DNA of 64,000 nucleotides. Source: an uncultured Candidatus Saccharibacteria bacterium (GTDB lineage: Bacteria > Patescibacteriota > WWE3 > UBA101185 > UBA10185). The stretch spans positions 8,606 through 72,605 of the forward strand of contig CAZXUJ010000004.1 of NCBI GenBank assembly GCA_964643995.1. Reading direction: 5' to 3'. A program made the translations under genes and the position numbers. Shown here one piece after another: positions 5,787 through 51,668 of this stretch; positions within the stretch are counted from its first letter, which is position 1, and each line of letters starts with the position of its first letter. Below the pieces are notes generated by a model. It worked only from the letters and a program-made list of their open reading frames with translations. It was not told the DNA's origin and did no database searches.

Positions 5787-5806
5787 TGTGTATAAGTTTA
5801 CAAAAG

Positions 5807-7360: not shown

Positions 7361-7362
7361 TC

Positions 7363-8946: not shown

Positions 8947-11178
8947 TTATCTCAGATCGAGGTTTAGGTTAAGATTATCTTTCAAATCATTCCCATTTTT
9001 AAAATCAGGCTGTGCTGTTTCCTGTACATTCTTTAAGATCTGCTCACTTAGTTTGGCTGGGTCTATTTCTTCTGGGATTACAGGCTCATTTACAGGGCGG
9101 GGAGTTGCATCGGTTTGTGTTGTTTGTTGTGTCACTGGTGTTTGAGGCGGTTCTGCTCTAATTGGCTCATTCTCTTTTGCTATTGTAGGGTTTACGAAAG
9201 GACTTGCGGTCGGTGCTGTAGCCTCCGGTTGCTTTTTTGGCATTTCAAAACGCTCTGCAGGTCTGTAGATCGTTCCTGCTGGTGGTGTTGGAGGTTGTTG
9301 ACCTGCGGCTTTGCGCGCATCTTCCTCTCGCATTTTTAGCAATTCCTCAGGGTTTGTTGTAATTAGACGATGTTCTTTATCCGAAGCTTTAATCTTGATA
9401 GATACGTGGTTGGCTCCTGCAAAGAACAATCCTTCACCTTTGTCTGCAGAGAGTAACAATCGTTTTTCACCTTCAGAAAGATAAAATGTTTCAGCTACTT
9501 TATCTATTGCCGCAGGATGTTGCTTAAGTAGTATTTGTATAGACGAGTTTGTAACAATAGCCTTACCAAAATCTGATCCTAAAAAGTCATCTACGTCTTG
9601 GGATATGGTTGTTAGTCCAAGATAATACTTTCTACATCTTTTAGCTACTCCATAAATGAATCTGGCACTATCATCATTTTGTAATAATGACCAGGCTTCT
9701 TCTACAATCAGCACACGTCGCTTTAAGTCCTTCTTTATTCGTGTCCATATGAAATCAAGAATTATATAGTAGGCAATTGGCCTTAGCACATCCTCAAGTG
9801 TTTGGGTAGAAAATACTATCATTTTGTTGTTTATATCTACGGTAGATTGTTGATCGAAAATACCCGCTAGAGAACCACGAATATATTTCTCTAATCTTTC
9901 AGCCATACCTCTCGCTTCTGGTTCTTCTGCTCCACGCAAAACCTTGTATAAATCTTCCATAACTGGTGGTTCTTGTTTCAGTTGGGTATCTGGATCTGTT
10001 GTTATACCTTTTATTCTGTACGTTTCAATAAGTGCCCTGTCTAGGATGGCCTCCTCAGTGGGGCTAAGTTCTCCCAGCATTAACTTAAAAAGTGTATGTA
10101 GCGATAGTAATTTTTGTCCTAACTCATTTTCACCTTCTGTAACAATCCCTGATAGGTCAAATGGATTCACTTTGTCTGGAGATGTAGCTGAAAAGCTTAT
10201 ATAGTTACCTCCTACGGCATCGCATAGCATTTTATATTCTTTTTCAGGGTCAATAATAAACACATCTGCCCCAAAAACCATCAGCCTCAACGCCTCTAAC
10301 TTAACAAGATATGATTTACCTGATCCAGACTTAGCGAATACTACGCTGTTTGCGTTTTCAAGAGAGAATCGATCAAAAATAACCAACGAACCATTGTGCC
10401 TGTTTATTCCATACATAATTCCTTCATCAGAGGTTAAATCGGACGATGTAAATGGAAAAGTTGTTGCCAAACTTGTCGTATCCATATTACGTGTAATAAG
10501 TAGTTTGTCAGTACCTGCAGGTATTGTGGCTTGAAAGGCCTCTTCCATTTGGAGAGTTGCACTTTTTGACAATAACAGTAGTGATCCTAAGGTTGATTCC
10601 AGTTTTTTGGTTGTATCTTCTAGTTCATCTATTGTGTCGGCTGGAATTGTTATGTAAAAGGAAAATTGAAAAAATTTCTCCACACCTTTTACCAGTTGTT
10701 CTTGTAGGGCCTTAGCATCTCCAAGCGCAATCTCAACAGTAGGGTCATTGATTTTGCCTTTTTCCCTATTTGACATCATGGTGGCTTCCATTTCAGTTAT
10801 TTTTCTTCGTAAGTCGTCTAGTACCCCTTTTGATTCCACAGGGTAGTAAAACATAGCGATATCTAGGGAGTGCTCAAAATTTATTACCGGTGCTAACCAG
10901 TTTGCACCTACAAAACGGGGGTATCCAGAAACGAACAGAGTTCTATAATGTTTGTTTCCTATTTTGACAACATTAAAATCAACCTCAATGGCAGGAGGAG
11001 CTATTATATCGCGTACGTTAATCATGCCTTCTGCTAAAACCTCTGCTGGTTTCTTTTGTGTTTTAGCATCTTTTGCAGCTAAAGTTGCTTGTGTTTTAGC
11101 ATCTAAGGCACTAGCTTCTGCAGCGGTCTTAGGTACAGTGCTTTTCTTTTTAAATAGCGTTAGTGCAGGTAATTTCAT
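8947..11178 (-). CDS. virB4: VirB4/TraC/CagE-family type IV secretion ATPase with disordered N- and C-terminal tails
   Basis: 743 aa. Walker A FAKSGSGKSY followed by FIIDPEKEY. Walker B VLIVEEAWSLL, a DEAW-type motif diagnostic of VirB4-family ATPases. N-terminal A/K/T-rich and C-terminal P/Q/T-rich low-complexity extensions. Confidence 0.7.
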   Translation of the reverse strand: MKLPALTLFKKKSTVPKTAAEASALDAKTQATLAAKDAKTQKKPAEVLAEGMINVRDIIAPPAIEVDFNVVKIGNKHYRTLFVSGYPRFVGANWLAPVINFEHSLDIAMFYYPVESKGVLDDLRRKITEMEATMMSNREKGKINDPTVEIALGDAKALQEQLVKGVEKFFQFSFYITIPADTIDELEDTTKKLESTLGSLLLLSKSATLQMEEAFQATIPAGTDKLLITRNMDTTSLATTFPFTSSDLTSDEGIMYGINRHNGSLVIFDRFSLENANSVVFAKSGSGKSYLVKLEALRLMVFGADVFIIDPEKEYKMLCDAVGGNYISFSATSPDKVNPFDLSGIVTEGENELGQKLLSLHTLFKLMLGELSPTEEAILDRALIETYRIKGITTDPDTQLKQEPPVMEDLYKVLRGAEEPEARGMAERLEKYIRGSLAGIFDQQSTVDINNKMIVFSTQTLEDVLRPIAYYIILDFIWTRIKKDLKRRVLIVEEAWSLLQNDDSARFIYGVAKRCRKYYLGLTTISQDVDDFLGSDFGKAIVTNSSIQILLKQHPAAIDKVAETFYLSEGEKRLLLSADKGEGLFFAGANHVSIKIKASDKEHRLITTNPEELLKMREEDARKAAGQQPPTPPAGTIYRPAERFEMPKKQPEATAPTASPFVNPTIAKENEPIRAEPPQTPVTQQTTQTDATPRPVNEPVIPEEIDPAKLSEQILKNVQETAQPDFKNGNDLKDNLNLNLDLR

Positions 11179-11180
11179 AA

Positions 11181-11876
11181 TTATTCTATAATCGCAGGAT
11201 TTACAATTGCTGTCTTATAATCCTCTACACTTGTTCTAATTCTTTGACCATGCATGGAGCTTGGATTGTAAATGTCAAAGTATAATTCTACCAGTTCTTG
11301 TGTCGTAAGCTGTCGTGTTTTTACTCCTAGTCTGTTAAATTCCGCTGAGAGATGGTCGATTTTTGGCTGTATATCTCGTATGGAATCTTTTATAGCTTGA
11401 TCAACATTAACATTCACTCGTTTATTATGCGCTCCTAATAGCACCATGAACCATCCAAATGGGTTGGAGCTTTTGTTTACTTGATTAGTTCCTCCAGAAG
11501 ACACCACCACATAAAACTTCTTGTCTAATACGTCATTCCTTTCTATAACATCCTGAACGAATTCTCTATATGAAGTTGCTTGTTCTCGAAACAATGGGTC
11601 CGTAATTTTTCTTTCTAAGCGGTGAATTTTTTCAAGATATTTAGTAATATCTAACTTTTTTGATCTGATAACAATTTGAACAGGAAAGGTTATAGAATTG
11701 AGTAGCATTGCAAATGCCGAAATCATAGCATCTTGCTCAATCTCTGACAGTAAATCGAAATTAACAGCTGTTGTCTGCATCAATGCACTTACGGCTCCAC
11801 TTTTAAGCACCACTAAATTTTGTTTGATATCTAGAATATCTAAGTGTTCTTGGGTTGTTGCTTCAATAAATGACAT
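11181..11876 (-). CDS. hypothetical T4SS-associated protein, possibly a separately encoded VirB4 N-terminal-domain-like module
   Basis: 231-aa soluble ORF, translationally coupled: it stops 2 nt before the virB4-like start and starts 2 nt after the upstream membrane protein stop. No recognisable catalytic motif. Confidence 0.4.
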   Translation of the reverse strand: MSFIEATTQEHLDILDIKQNLVVLKSGAVSALMQTTAVNFDLLSEIEQDAMISAFAMLLNSITFPVQIVIRSKKLDITKYLEKIHRLERKITDPLFREQATSYREFVQDVIERNDVLDKKFYVVVSSGGTNQVNKSSNPFGWFMVLLGAHNKRVNVNVDQAIKDSIRDIQPKIDHLSAEFNRLGVKTRQLTTQELVELYFDIYNPSSMHGQRIRTSVEDYKTAIVNPAIIE

Positions 11877-11878
11877 GA

Positions 11879-13318
11879 TTACGCTCTTCCAACTATATCT
11901 ACAGGTGCCAGTACAGTTCCCGTAGCTTCAAAATTAATTATATCAAAGGTAAGATTAGTCTTGTTAGCTTTATCTGTCAGTATTGTATAAGATCCGTTGG
12001 ATAATGCTGTCGATATAACAAATTGTCCCAATTGATTTGTTTTTAGTCCTCTTACAGGTTCTTCCTTATCGTTTTTAATTATTACCACTACGCCATCTAG
12101 GGGGTTGCCTGCATAATCCTTAACAACACCAGAAATTATATTTGGCTTATTACTCAAGGGGTTAATGTTTGCAGTTTGTGCTGGTACAGAAGGTTCAGGT
12201 GGAGGGGGTTCTATCTTTGTTGTTTGGTTTGTTTTAGGTTCTGGTTCTGTAGCAAGCACTGGGGTTTCTACGGTTTGTTTTGTTTCTTGTGCCTTAGGTT
12301 GCATAGCAGGTGGTGTTTCTATCTTATCCGAATACTGTTCATCCGTTTTTATTTGATTGAGTAGTTTCCTTAATTGTTCTGCTTTATCCTCTATATCTCC
12401 TTGAATTTTTTCTTCATCTGCAGTCTTTAGTATTCTTTCGCCTCGTATAGGCAGAATTATTTCTCCTTGTTGTGGCAGTAAGTTCGTGAATTTTCTTCCT
12501 GAATGTCTGTCTGGTGTGATAGCTCTGGTCTTATACGATTGTTTATCTTCTTTTCTGCTCGGCATCAGTGCTGTCATTAGTTTCTTACGTTGTGGTTCTT
12601 TTTTTGGTTCCAGCGGTTTCGGTTGTTGAGGTGTTTCCTGTGCCTTAGGGGTTATCTCCATAGGTTTTTGCTCTTCTTTGTTTTTGTTTTCCTCAGGGTT
12701 TGTTGGTGTTGGAACTATTGGAGGTGGTGCTATCACGGGAGGTGCCGCTACAGGTATTTCTTGCACTTCCACTAATGGTTCCTCTACTAAAGTAGTAGTG
12801 GTTGTTGTTGTGCTAGTGCTTTGGAAAACACTTCTTAGTTTTTCTACGTATTCGTACTCGGATATGTCTAGCGGATCCGCAGGAGCCTCGAGTTCCTGAT
12901 GTTCCAAAAAATCCTCTAATTTTCTACGGCTGGAGGTTGGTGTTAGTGTAATAAGTTCCTGCTTTACAACTGCTAAATTTTCCATAGAGAGTGCTGCAGG
13001 AATCTCGGCCTCCTTTTTCCAGATTCTTTGAGTTGGTGCGTACATTGATTTAAAAAAGTTTATAAACCACTCATCAAGTCCGCGTTCTTGTAACGGAATA
13101 AATGCAAAGCCTATTCCCATTAACACAATTAGAATAACTAATGGCCACTTAAGTAAATTATTAATTCCTACAAATGTTCCATAGGCCATAGCACCAAACA
13201 CCATCAAATATATGAATTGTCGCATTGTTAAATCACCTATGATCTTGAACTCAACGTCCATTATGTTTTGTGGAACAGCATGTTGTCGATTTGTAGTTTG
13301 TACGTCATTTATAGGCAT
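11879..13318 (-). CDS. T4SS membrane protein: VirB3/TcpE-like TM hairpin, Pro/Thr/Lys-rich linker, and a CarboxypepD_reg-like beta-sandwich C-terminus
   Basis: 479 aa. Two N-terminal TM helices (…FIYLMVFGAMAYGTFV…WPLVILIVLMGIGFAFIPL) typical of VirB3/TcpE-like proteins. Long low-complexity linker (poly-T, PPPEP). C-terminal …VVKDYAGNPLDGVVVIIKND…GSYTILTD resembles a carboxypeptidase-regulatory-like fold. Confidence 0.4.
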   Translation of the reverse strand: MPINDVQTTNRQHAVPQNIMDVEFKIIGDLTMRQFIYLMVFGAMAYGTFVGINNLLKWPLVILIVLMGIGFAFIPLQERGLDEWFINFFKSMYAPTQRIWKKEAEIPAALSMENLAVVKQELITLTPTSSRRKLEDFLEHQELEAPADPLDISEYEYVEKLRSVFQSTSTTTTTTTLVEEPLVEVQEIPVAAPPVIAPPPIVPTPTNPEENKNKEEQKPMEITPKAQETPQQPKPLEPKKEPQRKKLMTALMPSRKEDKQSYKTRAITPDRHSGRKFTNLLPQQGEIILPIRGERILKTADEEKIQGDIEDKAEQLRKLLNQIKTDEQYSDKIETPPAMQPKAQETKQTVETPVLATEPEPKTNQTTKIEPPPPEPSVPAQTANINPLSNKPNIISGVVKDYAGNPLDGVVVIIKNDKEEPVRGLKTNQLGQFVISTALSNGSYTILTDKANKTNLTFDIINFEATGTVLAPVDIVGRA

Positions 13319-13363
13319 ACGATCTCCCTAATTATGCACTATCGAGATTAGTTTTAATAGGAA

Positions 13364-14782
13364 TTATTTTCTAACGTCTTTTTTACCAAGTAACGCTGTT
13401 TCTAGCTGCTTAGGTAACTTCCATGCTTGGCGGTACCCATAAGCAAATGTGAATGGAACTACAAAAGGCATCAACATTATTGCAAAGCCTAGGTCTGCAG
13501 CGGCAGGTATGTCATTACTTGTAAATTCGAACCCTACACTACATGCATTTGATATAGCATCCCCTATAACCAGAGCTACAACCAAATTCGTAAATGCAAT
13601 TAAAGCTCTCATACCTAACATTGCCAATACTAACACACCTATCTCTTTAAACCAGTCGGTAGTTTTGGTTTCATTACCTGGAATTGCACCTATTGCAAAA
13701 GTAAATGGTGCCCCAATTGTCTTTACGATAATCTTCAAATAGATCATTAATACTTTTATTTGTATTGCAATATATGTTACTAACGCCGCTATGAAACCTA
13801 ATGAACTAAGTATCATAATAGATAATCCAGGGCCACCAGTTGCCGCTAGAATTATGAATGTACCTACAATTGCTAATATTCCAAACCCTGTGACTTCTGC
13901 CGCGGAAGTGCCTGCTAATGAATGTACTATCTCTATAGCACTTCCTCTTAGGGCGTAACCAATACTTGCGAATGTAGCTCCAATAGCGTAACTAAAGGTA
14001 ATTAAGAATAGTGCGATTACAATTCTTGGAATAGCATACTGTACTGTTACCATAGCTTGTGCACTTACTTTCTTGCGAGTCATTATCATGACGCCAGTGA
14101 CTATCATTATTAAGGCAATAAAGCCGTAGGAGGCATCCCTAACTATTTTCCACAGTTCAAAAGTAATGTTTAAAAGTGGTATACTACTATAGTCGGCTGC
14201 TGTAGAAGGATTTATCTGAGCATAGGCGGTTCCTACCAAAGGTACATCTTCAACTTGACGCTTAACATAGTACGCTAAATTTAGTGGCAATGGCTCACGA
14301 TTAAATTTTGTTAATTGCCCTCCAATATAAGCAAGGCTTCCTCCTGCCTGTATGCTGCTTCCTGGAGCTTGTACAACGCCACAGTTAGGATCGTCTCTAC
14401 AGTCCACATCATCAACATAAGAGTTTAGTAGCCCGGCGCAATATGCAGCATCTTCGTCGCGCATTTGACAAGCTGCTGGTAATTCACATGAAAATAATGT
14501 AGAGGATTCTTGAATGTAGTCCACACATCTAAAGACATTTGCAGGAGAGCCTCCGGTTGCTATCAAGAAAGGTAAATCTACAGCTAATGTTGTGCCTGCA
14601 TTTACCATTGTTCTTCTAATACTGATATCCTCTAATGCATCTCTAATTCTTTCAAACAGTCCTCTGTCTGGTTGGCAAAGCTCTTCAAGTGATATCGCAT
14701 GGGACTTAGGAGCATATACCGCAACGGACATAGTTAAAACTAAAATTGTTATTAAAGACTTTATGCTAAGTTTAGACATCAT
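13364..14782 (-). CDS. VirB6/TrbL-like polytopic T4SS channel protein with an N-terminal Cys-containing ectodomain
   Basis: 472 aa. Signal peptide (…VAVYAPKSHA), about a 200-aa ectodomain with 8 Cys, then 6-7 TM helices. This architecture matches VirB6-like proteins of Gram-positive T4SSs. Confidence 0.45.
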   Translation of the reverse strand: MMSKLSIKSLITILVLTMSVAVYAPKSHAISLEELCQPDRGLFERIRDALEDISIRRTMVNAGTTLAVDLPFLIATGGSPANVFRCVDYIQESSTLFSCELPAACQMRDEDAAYCAGLLNSYVDDVDCRDDPNCGVVQAPGSSIQAGGSLAYIGGQLTKFNREPLPLNLAYYVKRQVEDVPLVGTAYAQINPSTAADYSSIPLLNITFELWKIVRDASYGFIALIMIVTGVMIMTRKKVSAQAMVTVQYAIPRIVIALFLITFSYAIGATFASIGYALRGSAIEIVHSLAGTSAAEVTGFGILAIVGTFIILAATGGPGLSIMILSSLGFIAALVTYIAIQIKVLMIYLKIIVKTIGAPFTFAIGAIPGNETKTTDWFKEIGVLVLAMLGMRALIAFTNLVVALVIGDAISNACSVGFEFTSNDIPAAADLGFAIMLMPFVVPFTFAYGYRQAWKLPKQLETALLGKKDVRK

Positions 14783-14897
14783 AAATACGTTTCAAGTAAA
14801 ATTCTAGAATATAAATTACAACCTTACAATACTGACTTTTTTCGAATAGCCCAAGAGAGTTGGTGATTCTATTCAATTTTTATTATAGAATATAATT

Positions 14898-17800: not shown

Positions 17801-18554
17801 CGCGTTCAAAATGATTTTAGGTGCTCTTGCGATACCAATTATAGTTATGGTTGGGGCAACGATTGTTATCACACATGTGCTTGGTGGTTTTGCTCCCGTC
17901 AATCCTGCTGTTATGGGTGGTGGTGAGTACACTTATGGGGGTCCTCCAGGTGGCGGTGTAAATGCAGCACCTCCTTGCCCAGAGGCAACCATAACACCAA
18001 GTAGTTGTATTTTTCGTGATGGTGGTGTCGTAAGCACAGGATCTTATACATCGAGTAATGAGACGGGACACGGATCAAATACCTACTGGAACAGTCTTGT
18101 AAACTGGGGTTATGTAAATGATCCTTGTGACTTTAATATACCAACCTCTGCCTCGGGTACGCCAGCAAGGGGTAGTTTGGTAGCAAGTAATGTTTGCAAT
18201 GGTTTGGATCCTGCAAGGAGTTACTATGGTTATGCTTCTGATAATGTTTCTAACAGTTGTTGGACTGTATATTTGCCAAATATTGCGGACAGTTGGTCTG
18301 TGGGTAATGTAGGGTCTGCTAACTTTGGTGGTTTAGCGGTAGCTACTGGTTATAATTCAGCCGGTGATGAAATATACAAAATGACTTTGTTACATATAGC
18401 TGTTGGTTCTGCTGTAACAGGCACCCTCGAACCTGGAGCCAAAGTAGCCGAAACAGCAGAATGGGGAGAAAACACTCATGTACATGTAGAGCTGGCAGAG
18501 TGGACTGGGAACGCATGGCAGGGGATACCCCCAGAAAGTGTTATTTGTAATTAG
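14898..18554 (+). CDS. large T4SS-associated protein with a degenerate C-terminal LytM/M23-like peptidoglycan hydrolase domain
   Basis: 1218 aa. N-terminal Gly-rich segment, a long alpha-helical charged region, and a TM helix near aa 970 (ILGALAIPIIVMVGATIVI). The Cys-rich C-terminal domain ends in …YKMTLLHIAVGS…GENTHVHVEL, resembling the M23 HxH motif. This is analogous to the large cell-wall hydrolases (PrgK/TcpG/CwlT) of Gram-positive conjugation systems. Confidence 0.45.
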   Translation: MADSNPNPFYFGYYPGERPVYRGGGGKPTGPLFDMPAGMDLLGGINQLEYQLERALDTVNLPGWLKERYVKDLTGSLTIGVTPEKRIDMEEFERRGTEALEDMPGVAVKISINPADWAKDPGGMAKKTVQGWVSGVFDFDDFDRRSRYKLWATMLSDDKPDNTPSNGSFIDDTVRSWETKSRKAAVAEMEKAALRYANGRGMTPGVGDDIRAIRKDVQLIGRGKNPDDYTSTILSLDDPMYSGVKQAVLDFELHSTSVRKREESYDNFVKKSLYAMDEDIKSQVFLANAMQTLDFSDRRNWDEDFAANVDALMKKQVHGMDWDGANGSYYWESANYEESIRNLYRRNGITDAATLDRYVDHVQGLHSQAELSRYFDNLQAQIGQASRNLDELLVSENPLKAIDAQVNMLGFQKTLGHVDQNDINSYMTTLDRSLRAAYSGDGVARTQTELDALVNKRISEIKSSLENVKSYSPDQIEHLISKLPLDQQKKVRSDMQRHLESRRGLIGTRRELDNILGGFDVTQIKNLSVAERKKLKRQLKEQLDGVTKVGLIGETITGGDVPLWGYSAQRKYLRNINNSWFKYDEHEKALGGITSKGNVLFSLIPRLEEERAQQEWDEFFNAIEKDGLLKGMLNTYGWSRLKAKYKYLTPSYYVEKALRSVNNFGLKIEEAHKITRNINGVNVDMDYLFKIGGAGVGFLGDSTGKTTRIFANSFKVEFDLPSGVKKATLIGGDHFNFLTNHKFKSQLKELRARNLFNPDSFKDLLMSGSEAEFLQKLRAVGFKIHGDAAADLFKEFTAYKRWLDKQAAKLGGNANDPAFAFSIFMGVHNYDLMQDHWGVSSVVGITKRYAGPLQKVYKYLNAFQTRLFETTLGRVLNVAVNYKTLLAQKIARGSLRMFIERAITKLLSWFGQAAASETVVGSYLVKAIEPAIRYVVKKVLDVGEAVFKAALKWDFSGIFEEFGAAVNAAFKMILGALAIPIIVMVGATIVITHVLGGFAPVNPAVMGGGEYTYGGPPGGGVNAAPPCPEATITPSSCIFRDGGVVSTGSYTSSNETGHGSNTYWNSLVNWGYVNDPCDFNIPTSASGTPARGSLVASNVCNGLDPARSYYGYASDNVSNSCWTVYLPNIADSWSVGNVGSANFGGLAVATGYNSAGDEIYKMTLLHIAVGSAVTGTLEPGAKVAETAEWGENTHVHVELAEWTGNAWQGIPPESVICN

Positions 18555-18569
18555 TTTGAAAGTGCAAAG

Positions 18570-19079: not shown

Positions 19080-19083
19080 AGTA

Positions 19084-19554
19084 TTAGTTACACCCTGAAA
19101 TACCACTAAGTATTGGAGGTCCGCTTACCGTGGAGTTCGTTAAAAATTCGCAAAATCTTTCCTGCATAAGTCCAAAAACTCCGCCTCCAACCAGTTCTAT
19201 ATTGAAGCCAAATGCACCAGCTATTATCGAAAACATTGTGTAAAGCCCAGTCACTGCAACCAGTCCCCACACAGCATATGTTAAAGTGTTTTTTGCTCCC
19301 AGTGCTCCCTTAGGATCACCCAATGAAGTTGAATATTTGTAGGAAGCGAAACCTACAATCGCAACAAATACTGCCCCCGCGGATAAAATTAGCATGTTTA
19401 TAACACCGATAAACGGACATACTATTTGTACGATTGAAGGATCATCATAGTTTACGTTGTTACAATTTTGTGCAAAAGAAATCCTTGGAAAAGTAAAGGT
19501 TGTTAGAACAAATACTCCCAGTACTAATAAAGTTTTAAAACGTTGGAATACCAT
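19084..19554 (-). CDS. VirB2/TrbC-like pilin paralog with extra N- and C-terminal Cys-containing extensions
   Basis: 156 aa. Signal peptide, then a two-helix hairpin with the family loop motif KYSTSLGDPKGALGAKNTL (compare ITSRGDAKAAEQARGAL, MESLGDPKAVDSAKNAL in the neighbours). Confidence 0.5.
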   Translation of the reverse strand: MVFQRFKTLLVLGVFVLTTFTFPRISFAQNCNNVNYDDPSIVQIVCPFIGVINMLILSAGAVFVAIVGFASYKYSTSLGDPKGALGAKNTLTYAVWGLVAVTGLYTMFSIIAGAFGFNIELVGGGVFGLMQERFCEFLTNSTVSGPPILSGISGCN

Positions 19555-19864
19555 TCTGTAAGTCCGTGTTTGACACGCCTATTGAATTAAATACCACTGC
19601 CTTTATGGTTAATGCTCCTCCGCAAAGAAGAAATGCCAGTATACTATACTTGAGTGCATTTTTTGCACTGTCTACTGCTTTTGGATCACCAAGGCTTTCC
19701 ATAAATTTTATTCCCGAAATAATAATAACTATTAATGATATTGCTATACCTGATCCTATTATATAGTTAAGCACTACAGACATAATTGCACCTAAACTCT
19801 CATACTGAGTTCCCGTAATATTAGATTCTTCTGCAATTAAATTAGTTAAAATACCCACAATCAC
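19535..19864 (-). CDS. VirB2/TrbC-like pilin paralog
   Basis: 109 aa, two hydrophobic helices flanking FMESLGDPKAVDSAKNALKYS. C-terminus …NGIPTF similar to …NNVTPF of the next paralog. Confidence 0.5.
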   Translation of the reverse strand: MIVGILTNLIAEESNITGTQYESLGAIMSVVLNYIIGSGIAISLIVIIISGIKFMESLGDPKAVDSAKNALKYSILAFLLCGGALTIKAVVFNSIGVSNTDLQNGIPTF

Positions 19865-19885
19865 CTACCTTTATCACTGAAGCCT

Positions 19886-19909
19886 CACCCCTCGGGGTGA
19901 GGCATAAAA
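19886..19909. terminator. perfect GC-rich hairpin (GCCTCACCCC-TCGG-GGTGAGGC) between pilin paralogs
   Basis: 10-bp inverted repeat seen directly. On the minus (coding) strand it is preceded, rather than followed, by a U-run. It may therefore act as an attenuator or mRNA-stability element rather than a full intrinsic terminator. Confidence 0.4.
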
Positions 19910-19927
19910 TAAGTTCAAATTCAGAGT

Positions 19928-20269
19928 CTAGAACGGAGTTACGTTGTTTAAGCCTGCTGTATTTGTACCACCTGTTAATACGTTTGCTACAACATATCTG
20001 ATTGTTACTGCTGCTATAACAACTATGAAACCGATAACTGCGTTTGTTAATGCACCTCTAGCTTGTTCAGCTGCTTTGGCATCACCTCTAGAAGTTATGT
20101 ACTGTATACCTCCTAAAATCAAGAATACAACTGTCAAAGCTATACCAATACCCAACACGATATTTGTTATTATCGTAAAGATCTGTGCTAAAGTAACTTT
20201 TGTACCAAGAGCTAAAGGATTCACAACAGTGCTTGTCGAAACTGCTTGTGCTAATACTTCTCTTAACAT
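19928..20269 (-). CDS. VirB2/TrbC-like pilin (candidate major pilin)
   Basis: 113 aa. Long leader, two hydrophobic helices separated by QYITSRGDAKAAEQARGALTNA. Strong SD GGAGGTG 7 nt upstream. Its own AT-rich upstream region (20270-20381) and a downstream hairpin. Confidence 0.55.
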   Translation of the reverse strand: MLREVLAQAVSTSTVVNPLALGTKVTLAQIFTIITNIVLGIGIALTVVFLILGGIQYITSRGDAKAAEQARGALTNAVIGFIVVIAAVTIRYVVANVLTGGTNTAGLNNVTPF

Positions 20270-20381
20270 TTTCCTACACCTCCTTCTATAGATTACTAAA
20301 AAAATTTACATACTGATGCTTATAAATAAGCTATATATATTATAGCAAATTTATTACTTTGATATTGAACTAATCATTCTC

Positions 20382-21254
20382 CTACTGTCCTAGGAAGTTT
20401 TTCAGAATAATTCTCAAAATGGATAGTGCTAAAAGTAAGAATAATAGTCCGGATATAGCTGCTGTAAGTTCTTCTATTCCTCTCTTTACTTTCATTGGAT
20501 CGCCTTGACTGGTCATTATGGTGTAACTGGCAATTGCAACTGTAGGTATACCTAGCAATCCTATAGCTATGGGTAACATAAGGCGGTACATGTTTTGTAA
20601 GAAGCTCTCATAGTCCACGATTGATCCATCATATTCATTCGGAGTTATAGGTTCGTCAAAGATAGCAAAGGGATCGCCACAGTAACTGTTACCATCGGTG
20701 TATTGTGTGCAGTTAACGCCACCGCAACATCCTCCTGGTACCGGTGTCCCCCCTGAAACGCAGACATTCCCGTATGGTATACAGCCCTGGCCACCACAAA
20801 TACCTCCTCCGTTTTGTTGCACAGTACAGGACCCCCCTGCACACTGATAGTCATACGTACATGGAGACCCATCTGGTAACACATTTCCACAGGAGCCTAG
20901 TGGTGGTGTTATACATTGCCAGTTCCCGCCAACATCCTGACCACACTGTTGTCCTTGGCTACAACCCCCTTCCTCATCACATTCATTGAAAGTTCCGGAA
21001 TCTCCACATGTTATGGTACATGCCGCACTTGGTTGACATGTTCCAGGTTGTGGTGGTGCTGGAGGTGTTTCCGCCGGATTAACACAGACATATCCCGCCG
21101 CACAATCGACATCAGACCATGGTCCTCCACATGAGCCATCACCATCATCACATGAACTGCCTGTAGTTCCATCTCCTGCGTAAGTTTTATTGGAACTTAA
21201 GGTAGCCACGAGCAAGAACAATATTGAAATTTTCATTATGTCTTTAATGATCAC
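20382..21254 (-). CDS. secreted Cys/Gly-rich protein with a C-terminal VirB2-like pilin domain
   Basis: 290 aa. Signal peptide (probable start at MKISILF…, about 21236). About 180 aa with 36 Cys. C-terminal …YESFLQNMYRLMLPIAIGLLGIPTVAIASYTIMTSQGDPMKVKRGIEELTAAISGLLFLLLALSILRIILKNFLGQ is homologous to the small pilins. Confidence 0.5.
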   Translation of the reverse strand: MIIKDIMKISILFLLVATLSSNKTYAGDGTTGSSCDDGDGSCGGPWSDVDCAAGYVCVNPAETPPAPPQPGTCQPSAACTITCGDSGTFNECDEEGGCSQGQQCGQDVGGNWQCITPPLGSCGNVLPDGSPCTYDYQCAGGSCTVQQNGGGICGGQGCIPYGNVCVSGGTPVPGGCCGGVNCTQYTDGNSYCGDPFAIFDEPITPNEYDGSIVDYESFLQNMYRLMLPIAIGLLGIPTVAIASYTIMTSQGDPMKVKRGIEELTAAISGLLFLLLALSILRIILKNFLGQ

Positions 21255-21259
21255 TTTAT

Positions 21260-22825
21260 CTAATTTCCAAGAAAGTTATTTAATACTATTCTAAGTATTG
21301 TCAAAGCTAATAGCAAATATAATATTCCTGCTCCAGTGGCAGTTAAGTCTTCTGTGCCTTCTTTTAATTGGTCTGGGTTGCCTCGACTTGTCATAATTCT
21401 ATAGCCAGCAAGCGTGACTAGAGGTATTCCAGCTATCCCTATGGCTAGAGGAAGCAACAGTTTATATAAGTTTGACAGCATGCTTTCAAAGTCCACTATG
21501 GCTCCTACATAGGTGGGTGGTATGGCCTCCTCATCTTCATATGTAGTTTCGTCTGAAATTCCTCCGCTACCTGCTGTACAGTCGCAAGTGCCTCCATTAT
21601 CAGGTTCGTTAGGATTTATTGGTATACAGGTACCTCCAAAAGTACATATATCTTGACATATTTGGTCTCCTGCAACACCCACATCGCAAATAGGTTCGGC
21701 ACTAATGCATATCTGTGTGTTTGCCCATGCGTTAAACGCGCATGTTTGGCTGCTATCACAGCATGGTGTGTTTATTTGATTACACTCCTCTCCGACAGTA
21801 GCACAATTTGGTCCTGGGCCACTTCCACATACCGTATGATCAGCACATATTGGGTTTGATCCGGCCTGACAGTATTGTGTGCTTGGGCATCCGCCTATAC
21901 CACAGTCTGTGGCTTCGGGTGTACCAGTTACGGGACTAGTACAAGGTGTGCCTGTGGGGATACATTGTGCTCTATTATTGCAGGTAGGCTCTCCCCCATT
22001 ACTTTCGCATCGTTGCCCTGCGGTACACCCGCCGTCGCCACAGGTGTCGGGATCTACTGTTGTTGTATACCAGTATACTGGAGGTCCGCATGATGCCGTA
22101 CATTCTTCACGCGTATTGCATATGCCACCACCACCTAAAGTTTCACATCTTTGTGAGTCGCCACAAACGCCTTGTCCACATTGTGTAGAATCCACGGGTG
22201 ACTGGTACCAGTATGCCGGTGAACATGCTTGTTGAGCGTAGCATGCGCTTCTTGAAACACATTGGGGTGTGCCACTTCCGTTAGACTCACACCTTTGACC
22301 GGCTGCACAAGTATCCTCGCCGCATGTATCCGGTTCTACTGCCGTTTGATACCAATAAACATTAGGTCCGCATGGATTTGGTGGGGGAGGGGCGGGAGTT
22401 TGGCAGTTGGCTGCGGCTGATACAGTCTCAGTAGTGCAGTTGCCACTAGTATTACAGTACTCCCAAGTGTAGGTTATGTTTGCAACAATATCGGCTGAGT
22501 GTGTGTTCACTGTGGTTGAAAAATTCCAACCCGGTGGGCATGGTGACCCCCAGTCGCAAGTGCATCCGAAATTGGTACATGTAGCATTTCCTCCCCATCC
22601 GTCTGATTCAGAGTAGATAACACTTCCATTTCTTGTAACAACCTCTTCTACGTCTATATCGCTGTAGTAGCCCTCCTCTGGTACTAGAACGTAGTCAACA
22701 TCTATGCCACTTGCCCCTAAAGTACACTCCGTAATCTGTACGCTAACACTGCCTGCGGCATGTGCGCTTCCTAAACCATGAAACCAGAAAGTTATAAAAA
22801 ATAGAAAAATAAATAAATATTTCAT
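21260..22825 (-). CDS. secreted modular Cys-rich repeat protein with a C-terminal VirB2-like pilin domain
   Basis: 521 aa. Signal peptide, about a 120-aa N-terminal domain shared with the 436-aa paralog (…CDWGSPCP…), three ~45-aa repeats YWYxxxVxPDTCGxxxCxxGQRCESNG…C, more Cys-rich modules, then the pilin-like C-terminus (…IMTSRGNPDQLKEGTEDLTATGAGILYLLLALTILRIVLNNFLGN). Confidence 0.5.
   Translation of the reverse strand: MKYLFIFLFFITFWFHGLGSAHAAGSVSVQITECTLGASGIDVDYVLVPEEGYYSDIDVEEVVTRNGSVIYSESDGWGGNATCTNFGCTCDWGSPCPPGWNFSTTVNTHSADIVANITYTWEYCNTSGNCTTETVSAAANCQTPAPPPPNPCGPNVYWYQTAVEPDTCGEDTCAAGQRCESNGSGTPQCVSRSACYAQQACSPAYWYQSPVDSTQCGQGVCGDSQRCETLGGGGICNTREECTASCGPPVYWYTTTVDPDTCGDGGCTAGQRCESNGGEPTCNNRAQCIPTGTPCTSPVTGTPEATDCGIGGCPSTQYCQAGSNPICADHTVCGSGPGPNCATVGEECNQINTPCCDSSQTCAFNAWANTQICISAEPICDVGVAGDQICQDICTFGGTCIPINPNEPDNGGTCDCTAGSGGISDETTYEDEEAIPPTYVGAIVDFESMLSNLYKLLLPLAIGIAGIPLVTLAGYRIMTSRGNPDQLKEGTEDLTATGAGILYLLLALTILRIVLNNFLGN
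21970..22378 (-). repeat. three tandem ~135-bp coding repeats (Cys-rich module) inside the 521-aa gene
   Basis: Protein-level triple repeat PxYWYxxxVxPDTCG…GQRCESNG…C at about aa 150-285. Coordinates approximate. Confidence 0.45.
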
Positions 22826-24132
22826 AAACCTCCTAGAAAATTACGTAGGATTATTCTAAGTATAGAAAGTGCTAACAATATGTACAAAATACCTTTAACT
22901 GCTTCAGTCATATCTTCTTTACCTTCTTTTACTGCTTTAGGGTCACCTTGGCTTGTAAGAATCCTGTAGGCACCTAGTATTACTATCGGTATTCCGCCTA
23001 AACCAATTGTAAGTGGTAGCATCAACCTGTATACGTTTTGTAAAAAGCTTTCATAGTCAATAATTGGCCCCGTGTATGTTGGAGGTTCAGCAGATTCGTC
23101 CGCAATGTTTATCAAGGATCCTGGAGGAAGTGTTGCATCTGTGTTACACACGCATGTACCTCCTGCATCGGGGTTGTTTATGTCTAGTATTTCACAGCGT
23201 CCTCCTAGTGAACAGGTGCTGTTGCACTGGGAGTGTTGCCCTGGTTCGCACATGTTTCCTGAAGTGCACACCTTTGTTCCAGCATAGGGAATAAAGCTAC
23301 ATGATTGTGAAGTATCACAACAAGGTCTTGTGTTTACGTTGCAAACCTGACCAATTACAGCGCACTGGCCACCATTACATACGCTGGAAGGTACGCATGT
23401 TGGCGTCCAATTTGGTGGCCCTATTACACAGTAATCCCCGCTGCCACATCCCCCAATTCCGCAATCATCAGCTGTAGGTTGTTGTGTATATGAAACAGGA
23501 TTTGAGCATTGTCCTGGATTTCCCGCGCATACAGCAGCTGATATGCATCTTGGTTCCCAATCCGGGGCACCAATCACACAGTATGAATCAGAGGCACATT
23601 CTCCACCGCAATCGTCTATAGTAGGTGTCTGGCTATAGGGGATTGGATCTCCGCATTCATCAGGGTTAATAGGTGTTGTGCAAACCGCACTCCCCGTATA
23701 TTGCTCTGTAATAGTCGTTCCGTTTACATCGGTAAAGTCCCATGTCATTTGTACAATAGCGGTAATAGTCGCATCTTCCTCGGTTGCAGTCTCTGTAAAA
23801 TCCTGTGTGATAGGGCAAGGGGATCCCCAATCGCAAATACACCCTTGACTATCGCATATTACTGTTCCTCCCCATGCGTCTGGATAGCTGTATATTTGTG
23901 CGCCATTTTGTAGTATGGTTTCTTGGACTTGTATATCAGCATAATTGCCTGGTATTGTAACCATTTCGTAACTGATACCTAAGTTGTCTAGTCCCGTTTC
24001 ACAAGTTGTAATGTCCACATTAACACCTCCGGCAGCAAAACTGGCTCGGGGTAGAGCAACAAATAAAGAAACAAAAAATATTGATAATAGATAAAGTTTT
24101 GTGAAATTTCTCACTTTAGTAAAGTATATCAA
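22822..24132 (-). CDS. secreted modular Cys-rich repeat protein with a C-terminal VirB2-like pilin domain
   Basis: 436 aa. Signal peptide, a paralogous N-terminal domain (…CDWGSPCP…), two ~42-aa repeats (…DDCGxxxCxSGDYCVIGxPxWxPxC…), and the pilin-like C-terminus (…ILTSQGDPKAVKEGKEDMTEAVKGILYILLALSILRIILRNFLGGL). Confidence 0.5.
   Translation of the reverse strand: MIYFTKVRNFTKLYLLSIFFVSLFVALPRASFAAGGVNVDITTCETGLDNLGISYEMVTIPGNYADIQVQETILQNGAQIYSYPDAWGGTVICDSQGCICDWGSPCPITQDFTETATEEDATITAIVQMTWDFTDVNGTTITEQYTGSAVCTTPINPDECGDPIPYSQTPTIDDCGGECASDSYCVIGAPDWEPRCISAAVCAGNPGQCSNPVSYTQQPTADDCGIGGCGSGDYCVIGPPNWTPTCVPSSVCNGGQCAVIGQVCNVNTRPCCDTSQSCSFIPYAGTKVCTSGNMCEPGQHSQCNSTCSLGGRCEILDINNPDAGGTCVCNTDATLPPGSLINIADESAEPPTYTGPIIDYESFLQNVYRLMLPLTIGLGGIPIVILGAYRILTSQGDPKAVKEGKEDMTEAVKGILYILLALSILRIILRNFLGGL
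23382..23646 (-). repeat. two tandem ~130-bp coding repeats inside the 436-aa gene
   Basis: Protein-level duplicate PxxYxQxPTxDDCGxxxCxSxxYCVIGxPxWxPxCxxxxVC at about aa 163-250. Coordinates approximate. Confidence 0.4.
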
Positions 24133-24150
24133 GAACGAAACCAGACTGCG

Positions 24151-25974: not shown

Positions 25975-27672
25975 GCTGGGAGCTTTATCAGATGCAATTC
26001 CAGTCTCAACCTTCGTAGTATATTTCTCCAAAAACCCCTTTAAAACATGATTATTTTCTTTTGGACACCCAACGTACCATTCGTGATCTAGGGCACCTTC
26101 AAAGACAGTAATATATCTAATCCCTTGGCTAAGCAACTCGTTTTTCATTTCATCATTGTTCTTTCCACTTGTTCCAAAGTAATAGTTAGAATTGATGACA
26201 TGCGTATCGTTGTCTTTCATAAACAAGAAAAAGATTTGATGGCCTTTTTCACTTGCATTTAATATTTTGCCGTTTTGGGCTACCTTCTCAAGTATTTTGT
26301 TGTATTCGTAAGTGTCTTTGAGAAACGTTTTCTTGATATTTTCTTCGGCAAAAGACTCAATAGGCGTAAAGGCTATTTTTGTTGCGTAACCAACTGTTGT
26401 CACGTTATGTACCAGACTTGCTACTACAAGAATATAAACCACTTTTTTAAATTTCTCGTTGGTTATCTGTTCGACTAGTGTAAAAAAAGCTAAAGCGAAA
26501 AGAGGGAATAAGTAAAACAAATACCAATATGGTGCAGCTACAAAAACGTAAAACGGTATTAGTGTTCCCAGTCCTACCCAATATAATTTTCCGAACTTGC
26601 GCCCGAAGATAGCAAAAACAAAAATCCCAGCATATAAAAATATTCCGAGGCTTTGCAAGGGTATTTCAGCGAATCCATAATTGTTATAGCTGGTTATGAA
26701 AAACAGTGGTTGCAGTAAAACAAGTTGTGTACGTGAGCCATATATAAACGAGCCATAATCGCGCGCAAGCTTGTCATTTATACATTGCTCTAGTTTCTGC
26801 TCGTTACGTTGTAGATAGGTCACATTGTTGGGTTTTCCAAGAGTTCTATCAAAATGGGGGACTGTAATCCCCAAACTTAAAACCCAAAAAAGTATAGGGA
26901 TTAAAAAAGCAGCTCCTCCAAGTAGAAATAAAGGTAGATTTTTTCTAAAGCTAGTTTTCGCTAGATATATAAATGCTAATAAACCTAGCATTATCACTGT
27001 CGGTATCACCGAACTTTTAATCAAAACACACAAACCTAGAGTCAACGCAAAAAAAGGGAACAATTTTGCTTTTGAGTTTTCCGTGATCTCTAAAAACAGT
27101 ATTAATGCGCCAGTAACTAGAGCATACAAAATCATATCCATCTTAAATTCCAAGAACGCTAAGGCTAAAAAGGGTTGTGACAAAATAACGAGTAACCAGC
27201 TAGCTTTTTGTACTCTCGTATCCTTGGACAAGTGTTGTAACAATTTGAAAGTTAAAACTGCAGATATAATAGCCCAGAGCCCCATTGTTAAATTCACTAC
27301 TCTTAAACTGCTCAATCGCAAAATTATGCCTAACAAAAATTCAGCTAAATACGGTTTTTCAGGAAAATTTACTTGACCATGATCTGCAACAAGCAACACC
27401 ATTCGCCAATGGTTGTTCAACCCATCATAAGAATAAAGCCGAGTGTTAAAGTAAGAAAAAACTAAAAAGCTAACTAGTGATAACGCCAAAAATGGCTTAG
27501 CATATTTTCTCCACGTAATAGTCGCCAGTTTTGGTTTGAACCACATTACCAAGAGACCAGCACTTAGGCACAAAAGTACAATTAACAGACCAACCGGTCG
27601 AAAAAAGTAATATACCGTGATAGTGCTTACAAGAAAAATAAAAAGTAATAGATCTTTGGTTTTAGTTGTCAT
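25936..27672 (-). CDS. polytopic membrane protein, putative GT-C-fold glycosyltransferase (ArnT/PMT-like)
   Basis: 578 aa, about 11 TM helices followed by about a 190-aa soluble C-terminal domain. The family is inferred from architecture only. Confidence 0.35.
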   Translation of the reverse strand: MTTKTKDLLLFIFLVSTITVYYFFRPVGLLIVLLCLSAGLLVMWFKPKLATITWRKYAKPFLALSLVSFLVFSYFNTRLYSYDGLNNHWRMVLLVADHGQVNFPEKPYLAEFLLGIILRLSSLRVVNLTMGLWAIISAVLTFKLLQHLSKDTRVQKASWLLVILSQPFLALAFLEFKMDMILYALVTGALILFLEITENSKAKLFPFFALTLGLCVLIKSSVIPTVIMLGLLAFIYLAKTSFRKNLPLFLLGGAAFLIPILFWVLSLGITVPHFDRTLGKPNNVTYLQRNEQKLEQCINDKLARDYGSFIYGSRTQLVLLQPLFFITSYNNYGFAEIPLQSLGIFLYAGIFVFAIFGRKFGKLYWVGLGTLIPFYVFVAAPYWYLFYLFPLFALAFFTLVEQITNEKFKKVVYILVVASLVHNVTTVGYATKIAFTPIESFAEENIKKTFLKDTYEYNKILEKVAQNGKILNASEKGHQIFFLFMKDNDTHVINSNYYFGTSGKNNDEMKNELLSQGIRYITVFEGALDHEWYVGCPKENNHVLKGFLEKYTTKVETGIASDKAPSLFDLKIVESASY

Positions 27673-27678
27673 ATACAG

Positions 27679-28380
27679 TTAATATAACTGGGCGTATTTC
27701 ACTAATTTTTGGTAAAGCCCAACCCTATGGTCGGCCCCTACTGGGAATACAGCACAAGTAAACTTTTTTAGATGTTTTATAATCTGTGCAGCCATATAAT
27801 TTTCTCGTTTTTCGAACCACTCTTCATAATTCTTCCAATAAATAGCAAGATTTTTGTCTGCTGAATACTTTTCCAATATTGGAATGCACGTACCGATAGC
27901 TGTCGTGTGTTTTATTGTGATTAGTTTGTCCATGTCATTACTGTTAATTTCTCTTATGGTGCCCTTGTTTGCCATTTCCCGTTGTCGCTCAACTGTTGCA
28001 AAGTACAATTTCAACTTATCTCGCTCATCCTTCGTAGGTTTGGATGAAGTCAATATATTATGTAAAAATGAGAAGGCTTTTCCATACCCATCACTAGAGA
28101 TTTTCTTTGCGAATATCTTGCTTCTATTAGGTAAGTCTACGGGTATAACAGTACAAGTATGTTCTTGATGGTACCAATTAATTGCAGATCCCTCCTGCCC
28201 TTCAAGTTCCTCCCCAAAGGGTATACTCTTTTGCATTGTATTTTTGTGCATTTCTGGAGGTAACTCTTCAAAGATTACTTCAGGTCGAATTTGCTCTATC
28301 GCTTTGTAAAGGTCCAGCGCAGTATATCGCTGTGTGCTTTGATGAATTGTTCCTATAATTATCAGTTTTGTCATTTTCAC
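27679..28380 (-). CDS. TraB/PrgY/GumN/TIKI-family protein
   Basis: 233 aa. N-terminal IIGTIHQS (GTxH motif) and C-terminal VFPVGADHRVGL (GAxH motif), characteristic of the TraB/TIKI superfamily. Confidence 0.45.
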   Translation of the reverse strand: MKMTKLIIIGTIHQSTQRYTALDLYKAIEQIRPEVIFEELPPEMHKNTMQKSIPFGEELEGQEGSAINWYHQEHTCTVIPVDLPNRSKIFAKKISSDGYGKAFSFLHNILTSSKPTKDERDKLKLYFATVERQREMANKGTIREINSNDMDKLITIKHTTAIGTCIPILEKYSADKNLAIYWKNYEEWFEKRENYMAAQIIKHLKKFTCAVFPVGADHRVGLYQKLVKYAQLY

Positions 28381-51627: not shown

Positions 51628-51668
51628 TTGATTTATTCTCGCATATTTCCCGCAGAAACTCTATACTT

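Follow-up and report, generated by a model that had tools for sequence, protein, structure and literature searches.

Among the few machines that CPR bacteria (candidate phyla radiation, Patescibacteria) are known to need for their epibiotic lifestyle is a type IV secretion system (T4SS). Wang et al. (2023, Cell; PMC10633639) described the one of Southlakia epibionticum, encoded by SEML1_0006-0019, as closest to Gram-positive conjugative systems, with an essential pilin array and no recognisable coupling or relaxase proteins. Transposon insertion sequencing (Tn-seq) in that one species found the T4SS essential for epibiotic growth; the authors suggested a role other than DNA transport, and their model suggests that it delivers DNA or protein (PMC10633639). 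Quinonero-Coronel et al. (2025, Microb Genom; PMC12102498) surveyed 3,035 genomes, detected VirB4 in 2,417 of them, and found the Patescibacteria VirB4 clade nested in MPF_FATA. The systems they describe comprise TrsD, PrgI/VirB3, VirB6, VirB2 arrays of 2-11 genes and M23-containing VirB1 surrogates; relaxases are almost always absent, homologues of the type IV coupling protein (T4CP) usually lie far from virB4, and dnaA, dnaN and rnpA are enriched beside it. A 2025 FEMS review (PMC12857230) counts these systems as a recognised T4SS type, and a published hypothesis favours import; in Southlakia ComEC is dispensable and the T4SS essential (PMC12102498, PMC12857230). Here we compare with these systems a cluster at positions 8947-28380 of a 64-kb window, the window being the whole stretch of 64,000 nucleotides that was analysed, from contig CAZXUJ010000004.1 of an uncultured bacterium of the WWE3 lineage.

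We are confident that the locus is a chromosomal type IV secretion/pilus cluster of Patescibacteria, here of WWE3 lineage, with the architecture described below, and that the machine, known here from its genes alone, serves an epibiont-host interface and not conjugation. It descends from monoderm (MPF_FATA) conjugation machinery whose DNA-processing parts have been lost. The system and its odd features were published in 2023-2025; the locus is a new WWE3 example and not a discovery. An original prediction for these positions, read off the letters of the sequence, had likewise preferred a protein-secretion or cell-contact machine to a conjugation system, a view that our comparison supports and that was already in print (PMC10633639, PMC12102498, PMC12857230). 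Full supplements aside, these three publications do not describe Cys-rich pilin ectodomains, the architecture of the 1218-amino-acid (aa) protein, or SpoIID as a conserved partner; two details are possibly new, namely three pilins with large Cys-rich ectodomains and an M23 protein with a 970-aa cytoplasmic domain.

Core genes and conservation of the cluster

Between 8947 and 28380 there are 15 substantial open reading frames (ORFs), on both strands and in at least five transcription units, and all the ORFs of the original prediction are present at their places (Table 1). Those of the conserved cluster fall into four organisational blocks: (i) an operon running VirB6-like, PrgI/VirB3, TrsD, VirB4; (ii) a unit of the 1218-aa M23 protein and an Ig-like protein, divergent from that operon; (iii) an array of six pilin genes; and (iv) the gene of a SpoIID coiled-coil protein. 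The conserved T4SS cluster spans 8947 to about 25974.

Table 1. Genes of the T4SS locus, its right edge and the adjoining origin-type block (positions in the window)
Feature	Position	Strand	Basis
Origin-type block: dnaA	4389-5786	-	Pfam
Origin-type block: rnpA, yidD-sized ORF, yidC, jag/KhpB, dnaN	6092-8939	+	Pfam
VirB4-family T4SS ATPase, MPF_FATA/CD1110 type, 743 aa	8947-11178	-	NCBIfam NF045971, Pfam, PDB
TrsD-like protein, 231 aa	11181-11876	-	NCBIfam and Pfam profiles, orthologues
PrgI/VirB3-like membrane protein, 479 aa	11879-13318	-	Pfam PrgI and CarboxypepD_reg
Probable VirB6/PrgH-like polytopic membrane protein, 472 aa	13364-14782	-	topology, position, fold matches
Bitopic protein with C-terminal M23/LytM fold, 1218 aa	14898-18554	+	transmembrane scan, AF2, Foldseek
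N-terminally anchored Ig-like (Big_5) protein, 169 aa	18570-19079	+	Pfam Big_5
Pilin-like protein, 156 aa, signal peptide, 4 Cys, C-terminal extension	19084-19554	-	transitive BLASTP, shared motif
Short VirB2-like pilin, 109 aa	19535-19864	-	Pfam T4SS_pilin 9.5e-7, above gathering score
Short VirB2-like pilin, 113 aa	19928-20269	-	Pfam T4SS_pilin 5.2e-11, above gathering score
Long pilin, 290 aa, signal peptide, 22-Cys ectodomain, C-terminal hairpin	20382-21254	-	T4SS_pilin 1.1e-3, residues 218-282
Long pilin, 521 aa, signal peptide, 44 Cys	21260-22825	-	T4SS_pilin 2e-4, residues 449-513
Long pilin, 436 aa, built like the 521-aa pilin, two Cys repeats, 30 Cys	22822-24132	-	T4SS_pilin 3.8e-4, residues 363-427
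Membrane-anchored coiled-coil and SpoIID (lytic transglycosylase family) protein, 607 aa	24151-25974	+	Pfam, NCBIfam
PMT_2-type polytopic glycosyltransferase, 578 aa	25936-27672	-	Pfam PMT_2 1e-5; membership doubtful
Soluble protein, sub-threshold TraB/PrgY/GumN similarity, 233 aa	27679-28380	-	membership doubtful

The 743-aa VirB4 is the sole Walker-A protein of the locus in a Walker-A scan, and both nucleotide-binding motifs can be read in its translation (Walker A AKSGSGKS, Walker B VLIVEEAW). It passes the NCBIfam model NF045971, 'VirB4-like conjugal transfer ATPase, CD1110 family', with 377 bits against a cutoff of 325, and with this check by profile hidden Markov model (HMM) the original assignment to the VirB4 family holds. 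Pfam P-loop_TraG is matched at 1.3e-31, and the top PDB match is the Thermoanaerobacter VirB4 domain 4ag5 (1.3e-53). The NCBIfam models TIGR00929 and PRK13898 are missed, with scores far under their cutoffs. The C-terminal tail is disordered and rich in Pro, Gln and Thr.

The 231-aa protein next to it matches NCBIfam TrsD at 2.2e-8, a significant homology whose 34 bits lie under the 200-bit cutoff. It also matches the N-terminal part of the mycoplasma Mbov_0397 VirB4 model in NCBIfam (5.2e-12) and, weakly, Pfam TraC_F_IV (5.8e-4), and its orthologues in three related loci (L036, L038, L044) carry a precomputed match to the TraC-like family PF26593. Taken together, matches to TrsD/TraD, to the VirB4 N-terminus and to TraC indicate a homologue of VirB4's N-terminal domain that is encoded as a protein of its own; the relationship is seen through profiles only, BLASTP finding no pairwise similarity between this protein and VirB4. 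The protein is no VirB3; the VirB3-like member is instead the 479-aa protein, which matches Pfam PrgI (PF12666) at 5.3e-13, with 49.7 bits against a gathering score of 27. A long low-complexity linker follows the PrgI part and leads to a C-terminal CarboxypepD_reg beta-sandwich (1.5e-7; its 32.1 bits fall just short of the gathering score, 32.3), just the linker and beta-sandwich tail that had been proposed at the outset. The prgI gene adjoins trsD in nearly all related loci.

A TM scan gives the 472-aa protein, encoded upstream of prgI as in prgH-prgI-prgJ, about six to seven transmembrane (TM) helices, together with a signal peptide and an 8-Cys ectodomain. No Pfam, NCBIfam or PDB sequence match was obtained for it or for its 21-member family, profiles included. 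Its AlphaFold (AF2) model is all-helical and of moderate confidence (pLDDT 68.5), and the five best Foldseek matches in the PDB are all stalk chains of the R388 T4SS (TrwJ/VirB5-TrwI/VirB6), albeit weak ones (E 0.08-0.23, TM 0.2-0.4, probability up to 0.93). Given this topology and position and these weak but specific fold matches, the protein is probably VirB6-like, as originally predicted.

A scan of one genome per species gave 35 related virB4 loci, at 48-80% identity and including the closed genome CP006914. Nearly all are in metagenome-assembled genomes (MAGs) of candidate division WWE3 or other Patescibacteria, which bears out the suggestion that the organism is CPR-like. The order (dnaA) rnpA-yidC-jag-dnaN / virB4-trsD-prgI is the same in about 28 of the 35, and the succession VirB6-like, 1218-aa, Ig-like, pilins, long pilin, SpoIID is kept in L001, L002, L036-L041 and L044 (L numbers denote related loci), down to 25-30% identity. 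In L044, whose DnaA is 94% identical to the one here, all genes are intact (identities: VirB4 91%, TrsD 97%, PrgI 76%, VirB6-like 86%, 1218-aa protein 86%, long pilins 80-82%). A variant arrangement occurs in L042, at 9211-13298 of the 903-kb metagenome contig Ga0208373_1000006: the pilin-SpoIID block abuts dnaA, and across from it, at a distance of about 8-9 kb, are the counterparts of the 156-aa pilin and of the 1218-aa protein, so that the locus is rearranged yet still wrapped around the origin. In our window virB4 and dnaN are convergent, with 7 nt separating their stop codons. Relatives of 30-95% protein identity share the synteny with dnaN and the origin genes, and those of 25-95% the whole gene order through pilins and SpoIID. 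This argues for vertical inheritance and for a locus that is core and not an integrative and conjugative element (ICE), as had been claimed from its position flush against dnaN.

Wall enzymes and the pilin array

In the 1218-aa protein a signal peptide is lacking, and one TM helix, near residues 973-991, is followed by a Gly/Pro linker and a Cys-containing C-terminal domain (1025-1218); this topology puts some 970 residues in the cytoplasm and the last 200 or so outside. It has no match in Pfam (even with E up to 5) or NCBIfam, the gathering score of PF01551 is not reached, and the isolated C-terminus has no Pfam match either. A PDB profile search with the full protein returned nothing credible for the N-terminal 970 aa, and one with the C-terminal domain returned a lytic endopeptidase at 0.014 and also SpoIIQ. 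AF2 modelled residues 1025-1218 on a 21-sequence alignment with pLDDT 96.2, and the top 33 Foldseek matches of this model in the PDB are all M23/LytM domains with probability 0.94-1.00 (lysostaphin, EnpA, ShyA and others). Among these top matches is the LytM domain of PrgK (8s0u_A), the wall hydrolase of the pCF10 T4SS. The LytM/M23-like module with which the protein was said to end is thereby confirmed at the level of the fold, and the 1218-aa protein is likely the wall hydrolase of the VirB1/PrgK type.

The family of this domain comes into view with an exhaustive search. A word-indexed protein search found one relative of the 1218-aa protein, and none when the C-terminal profile was used; exhaustive phmmer, queried with the last 199 residues, brought up 67 cluster representatives. 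These proteins reach about 1900 aa in length, and most have the M23-fold domain at or near the C-terminus. Across 50 sequences H1058, D1115, H1166, H1194, H1196 and four Cys are invariant. H1194 and H1196 make up the HxH motif, and the position four before D1115 is occupied by Gly, so that the canonical His of HxxxD is absent and enzymatic activity of the domain is not assured. Judging from the alignment, the invariant H1058, within GHGSNxYW, might substitute for it. Pfam Peptidase_M23 is matched weakly by 13 of the 50 relatives (best 1.1e-5). With their conserved Cys pairs and invariant GHGSNxYW motif (the domain is encoded at 17970-18551 here), the 67 representatives may form a distinct M23 subfamily that PF01551 misses. 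A canonical M23 peptidase is encoded elsewhere in the window (62688-63926; PF01551 7e-20) and has no detectable sequence relation to the 1218-aa domain; an hhalign comparison of the latter's three-sequence C-terminal profile with it gave a probability of 0.06, no signal, the profiles being too shallow.

Two further proteins accompany this one. The 169-aa product of the following gene, absent from the original prediction, matches Pfam Big_5 at 7.3e-5, its 23.9 bits just clearing the gathering score (23.6), and the gene is kept after that of the 1218-aa protein in L001, L002, L036, L037, L039 and L044. The 607-aa protein at the far side of the pilins matches Pfam SpoIID at 7e-18 and NCBIfam SpoIID_LytB (TIGR02669) with 93 bits against a cutoff of 83, in agreement with its earlier description as a SpoIID-domain coiled-coil protein. 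Its gene adjoins the pilin array in L038-L042 and L044.

Six VirB2/TrbC-like pilin domains had been counted from the sequence, and six are retained: an alignment shows the hairpin TM1-(S/T)xGDPK-TM2 to be common to all. Two of the proteins match T4SS_pilin (PF18895) above the gathering score and three below it, these three in their last 70 or so residues. The 156-aa protein, which reaches only 0.089, is included through the shared motif and transitive BLASTP, its homologue L001:1216-1713 being matched by both the 109-aa and the 113-aa pilins. The 113-aa pilin also matches the NCBIfam Mbov_0395 pilin-like model at 1e-5. The short pilins end in a conserved (T/V)P(T)F (NGIPTF, NVTPF, VVPF, ITPF, ATPTF; 19535-20269 in the window, 475-1232 in L001, 213-972 in L002), and the long ones have no such motif, ending directly after TM2. 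By analogy with TrbC/VirB2, the motif might be a processing or cyclisation signal.

The long pilins carry their hairpin behind large ectodomains. In the 521-aa pilin a beta-rich N-domain is followed by four 6-Cys repeats of about 45 aa and the C-terminal pilin hairpin; the ectodomain has no Pfam match. The 521-aa and 436-aa pilins are paralogues with 33-44% identity that differ in the number of 6-Cys repeats, and the DNA repeats of the pilin region reflect this paralogy only; they are not cassettes. Long Cys-rich pilins (363-620 aa, up to 56 Cys) occupy the same position in relatives, and between distant relatives only their C-terminal pilin anchor, about 80 aa, can be aligned. Most of the window has a GC content of about 0.36-0.39, but at 20382-24132 it climbs to 0.43-0.46, just where the Gly/Cys/Pro-rich ectodomains of the long pilins are encoded; a foreign origin need not be invoked.

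At the right edge, the PMT_2 glycosyltransferase gene, another that the original prediction passed over, and the 233-aa gene have no syntenic counterpart in the distant relatives L039-L042, although ORFs of the same sizes lie 3' of SpoIID in the near-identical assembly L038. For this lack of synteny we do not count them in the system, and they probably lie outside it. A system of about 19 kb reaching to 28380 had been proposed; its conservation extends to about 25974, and the last two genes fall away. The call of a TraB/TIKI-family protein was not sustained either: the 233-aa protein scores 22.4 bits with Pfam PF01963 (gathering score 26.8) and 21 bits with NCBIfam TraB TIGR00261 (cutoff 178), and it has no PDB sequence match.

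Affiliation, mode of action and competing explanations

With the T4SSs of Saccharibacteria and other Patescibacteria the locus shares an MPF_FATA-type VirB4 with TrsD, PrgI/VirB3 and VirB6-like neighbours. Also in common with these published systems are an array of six VirB2-like pilins divergent in sequence, genes for a peptidase and a glycosidase close to virB4, the absence of relaxase and coupling protein from the cluster, the place beside dnaA/dnaN and an organism of the CPR as carrier. It differs from Southlakia in lineage (WWE3, not Saccharimonadia), and from the systems as described in that three of its six pilins have Cys-rich N-terminal ectodomains of 200-450 aa, that the M23 domain ends a 1218-aa protein with a large cytoplasmic domain, and that its conserved members include a coiled-coil protein with SpoIID domain.

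The gene order VirB6-like (PrgH), VirB3-like (PrgI/TrsC), TrsD, VirB4 (PrgJ/TrsE) is that of the MPF_FATA systems of Firmicutes, pCF10 Prg/Pcf and pGO1/pIP501 Trs/Tra, and pCF10, too, has a wall hydrolase anchored in the membrane and equipped with a LytM domain (PrgK). Unlike pCF10, the locus has no relaxase (PcfG), T4CP (PcfC) or PrgB-type adhesin, and no PrgL/VirB8-like protein was detected in it. Gram-positive conjugative T4SSs are without the VirB2-like pilins present here, and pCF10, pGO1 and pIP501 are plasmid-borne, whereas this locus is chromosomal, origin-proximal and, by its synteny, vertically inherited. The Mycoplasma ICE proteins Mbov_0397 (VirB4) and Mbov_0395 (pilin-like) appear as secondary NCBIfam matches, under the equivalog cutoffs throughout, when VirB4, the TrsD-like protein and the short pilins are searched; these matches fit a shared monoderm ancestry in which a two-TM pilin-like protein accompanies VirB4. 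The Mycoplasma ICEs are mobile and carry DNA-processing genes of their own, unlike the locus. Helicobacter pylori ComB, Bordetella Ptl and Brucella VirB function, or are believed to function, with no VirD4-type ATPase, and ComB imports DNA. They are diderm MPF_T systems with VirB7-10 outer-membrane cores, and there is no sequence-level affiliation with them here, VirB4 falling far short of TIGR00929 and PRK13898.

A mechanism can be proposed along the following lines. VirB4 together with TrsD, anchored by VirB3/VirB6, would power the extraction of VirB2-like pilins from the membrane, as VirB4 does in other T4SSs, and their polymerisation to form a filament or conduit at the surface. Local opening of the peptidoglycan, that of the cell's own wall and possibly the host's, would fall to the M23 and SpoIID enzymes, as it does to PrgK for pCF10; a tethered M23 endopeptidase and a SpoIID glycan-strand hydrolase would divide between them two activities that PrgK unites in one protein. 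The long Cys-rich pilins would present disulfide-stabilised binding modules for engaging the host cell. In the pili known so far, both termini of a VirB2-type pilin point outward, so N-terminal Cys-rich modules could be displayed on the filament or at its tip as adhesins. As to cargo, we tentatively favour pilus-mediated contact with uptake of host material, which we would still stop short of calling probable, over effector export, which seems unlikely to us; the lean towards uptake comes from the lack of a T4CP in the locus and from the inability of these organisms to make nucleotides. A long shot is that the WWE3 version works without any coupling protein, the approximately 970-aa cytoplasmic domain of the 1218-aa protein and TrsD serving as cytoplasmic gate or receptor, and, separately, that the long pilins are modular host-recognition adhesins in a monoderm VirB2-type pilus, with the Cys-rich repeat ectodomains, which unlike the anchor are not conserved between distant relatives, setting host range.

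Two competing explanations would deny the identity of the locus. One is that an MPF_FATA-type ICE or integrated plasmid landed beside dnaN and transfers DNA, perhaps with the HUH Rep of a neighbouring element as relaxase. VirB4 does pass a conjugal-transfer ATPase model, TrsD and PrgI are components of conjugative plasmids, and a rolling-circle replication (RCR) Rep and a serine recombinase sit at a tRNA-Ser gene some 2-4 kb past the right end. Yet the synteny with dnaN and the origin is conserved across relatives and not patchy, which refutes this explanation, and the other evidence runs the same way. No VirD4/TcpA T4CP, VirB11, MOB relaxase or recombinase was found in 8947-28380 by Pfam and the Walker-A scan, in keeping with what had been said of this stretch as to coupling protein and relaxase; elsewhere in the window there is no T4CP, VirB11 or MOB relaxase among the ORFs scanned with Pfam (43 in all, with every ORF of at least 500 aa in the 64 kb among them but not some 13 of 110-240 aa that lie beyond the locus; oriT was not searched). 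No related locus contains the Rep/recombinase element, its Rep belongs to PF23343 and to no MOB family, and the GC content of the locus matches its surroundings outside the Gly/Cys-rich pilin genes. We consider a recently landed conjugative element extremely improbable. Very unlikely, too, is the other explanation, that there is no single system but a minimal VirB4 operon which came by chance to lie beside unrelated envelope genes. The non-syntenic PMT_2 and TraB-like genes would agree with it, as would the spread over at least five transcription units on both strands and a scan in which promoter-like and terminator-like sites occur at chance frequency (two of the four best-scoring promoter-like sites, at 10/12, do fall in the divergent gap 14783-14897, which is no more than suggestive). 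Chance does not account for a gene order kept from VirB6-like to SpoIID down to about 25-30% identity, for the pCF10 T4SS hydrolase among the structural neighbours of the M23 domain, or for the same hairpin at the ends of the Cys-rich proteins and the short pilins.

The remaining explanations concern function. A T4CP-independent import machine, comparable to Helicobacter ComB or archaeal Ced, could take up host DNA or other macromolecules for an organism unable to make nucleotides. It is a functional sub-case of the reading we prefer, with the same identity, and we rate it as possible but on balance doubtful. The direction of transport is not readable from sequence. The absence of coupling protein and relaxase from the locus speaks for it, ComB being likewise without a T4CP; so does a weak similarity of VirB4 to CedB (7.3e-10), and the published hypothesis favours it (PMC12102498, PMC12857230). 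The CedB match, however, amounts to 38 bits against a cutoff of 700 (CedD: 26 against 600), so VirB4 is not a Ced member; CedA and ComB partner proteins were not recognised, nor was a DNA-binding or nuclease component identified in the locus. Export of effectors or toxins into a host bacterium, in the manner of Xanthomonas-type bactericidal T4SSs or Streptococcus suis 89K, would suit the wall-degrading M23 and SpoIID enzymes and the pilus-like array of the locus, as well as the delivery of DNA or protein in the Cell 2023 model (PMC10633639). As a specific account it strikes us as rather unlikely: the locus holds no T4CP to recruit cytoplasmic substrates and no recognised candidate effector/immunity pairs, and the M23 domain hardly looks like a secreted toxin, since a TM helix of the same protein ties it to the membrane.

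Several points weigh against our preferred reading of the locus as a non-conjugative Patescibacteria T4SS beside the origin. The absence of a T4CP holds for 64 kb of a genome that is likely near 0.9 Mb, and most Patescibacteria genomes have VirD4 homologues elsewhere (PMC12102498). TrsD and three of the pilins score under curated cutoffs, no VirB8-like protein was identified in the locus, and the 472-aa protein is called VirB6-like, probably rightly, on topology, position and non-significant fold matches (E about 0.1). Membership of the published Patescibacteria VirB4 clade would follow from the nearest neighbours only, and not from a VirB4 tree. The GC skew of the window marks no clear origin, whose presumed position is taken from the gene content (dnaA, rnpA, yidC, jag, dnaN) and the clustering of DnaA boxes. 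To our knowledge no WWE3 organism has been cultivated with a known host.

As a cleanly resolved example, the locus extends the system and its origin-proximal placement to WWE3 with the same core, and it makes accessory parts concrete: a PrgK-like M23/LytM domain, a conserved SpoIID partner and pilins with Cys-rich ectodomains. The current picture is unchanged, and since WWE3 is uncultivated, the locus alone makes the open question of cargo and direction no more testable.

Other features of the window

DnaA-box-like 9-mers flank dnaA, four at 4176-4387 and two at 5787-5815. Their total across the window is not above chance (26 against 21.4 expected), and their clustering around dnaA alone is of note. 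A 364-aa SMC_N/AAA ATPase that looks like RecF is encoded at 53629-54723, about 45 kb from dnaN; the usual dnaA-dnaN-recF arrangement is broken, and the T4SS fills the slot after dnaN. Directly adjoining dnaA, at 2082-3964, is a MurT/GatD-like pair (a Mur ligase with MurT_C and a CobB/CobQ-type amidotransferase), which implies an amidated, Gram-positive-style peptidoglycan.

The small integrative element past the right end (30033-32693) comprises the RCR Rep (PF23343, 2e-20), a large serine recombinase and a tRNA-Ser(cga) gene; the recombinase ORF runs with its last 60 or so nucleotides into the tRNA gene, the two being on opposite strands. The Rep (30215-31144) was considered as a MOB_T-like relaxase and rejected, its family being that of a phage/plasmid replication initiator and the element being absent from relatives; the original prediction had rightly set it apart from conjugative relaxases. 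When Rfam is run on a 500-nt region, the tRNA (32604-32693) reaches 49.7 bits, well over its gathering score of 29; a scan of the whole window at Rfam gathering scores gave zero matches, which is a filter artefact and not evidence that RNA genes are lacking.

Farther along are a 598-aa ATP-dependent DNA ligase of archaeal/eukaryotic type with N, adenylation and C domains (47276-49072; 4.9e-53), and a 323-aa protein (50656-51627) whose match to Fic/DOC (3.2e-4) stays below threshold, at 21.9 bits where the gathering score is 24. Enzymes of envelope glycans are dense in the window (809-2053, 43765-46126, 51606-53678 and 55486-56637) and include a Wzy_C O-antigen-ligase-like protein, two GT87 proteins, DUF2298 and GT1, to which the PMT_2 protein adds. 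This density, with PMT_2, suggests an elaborately glycosylated surface.

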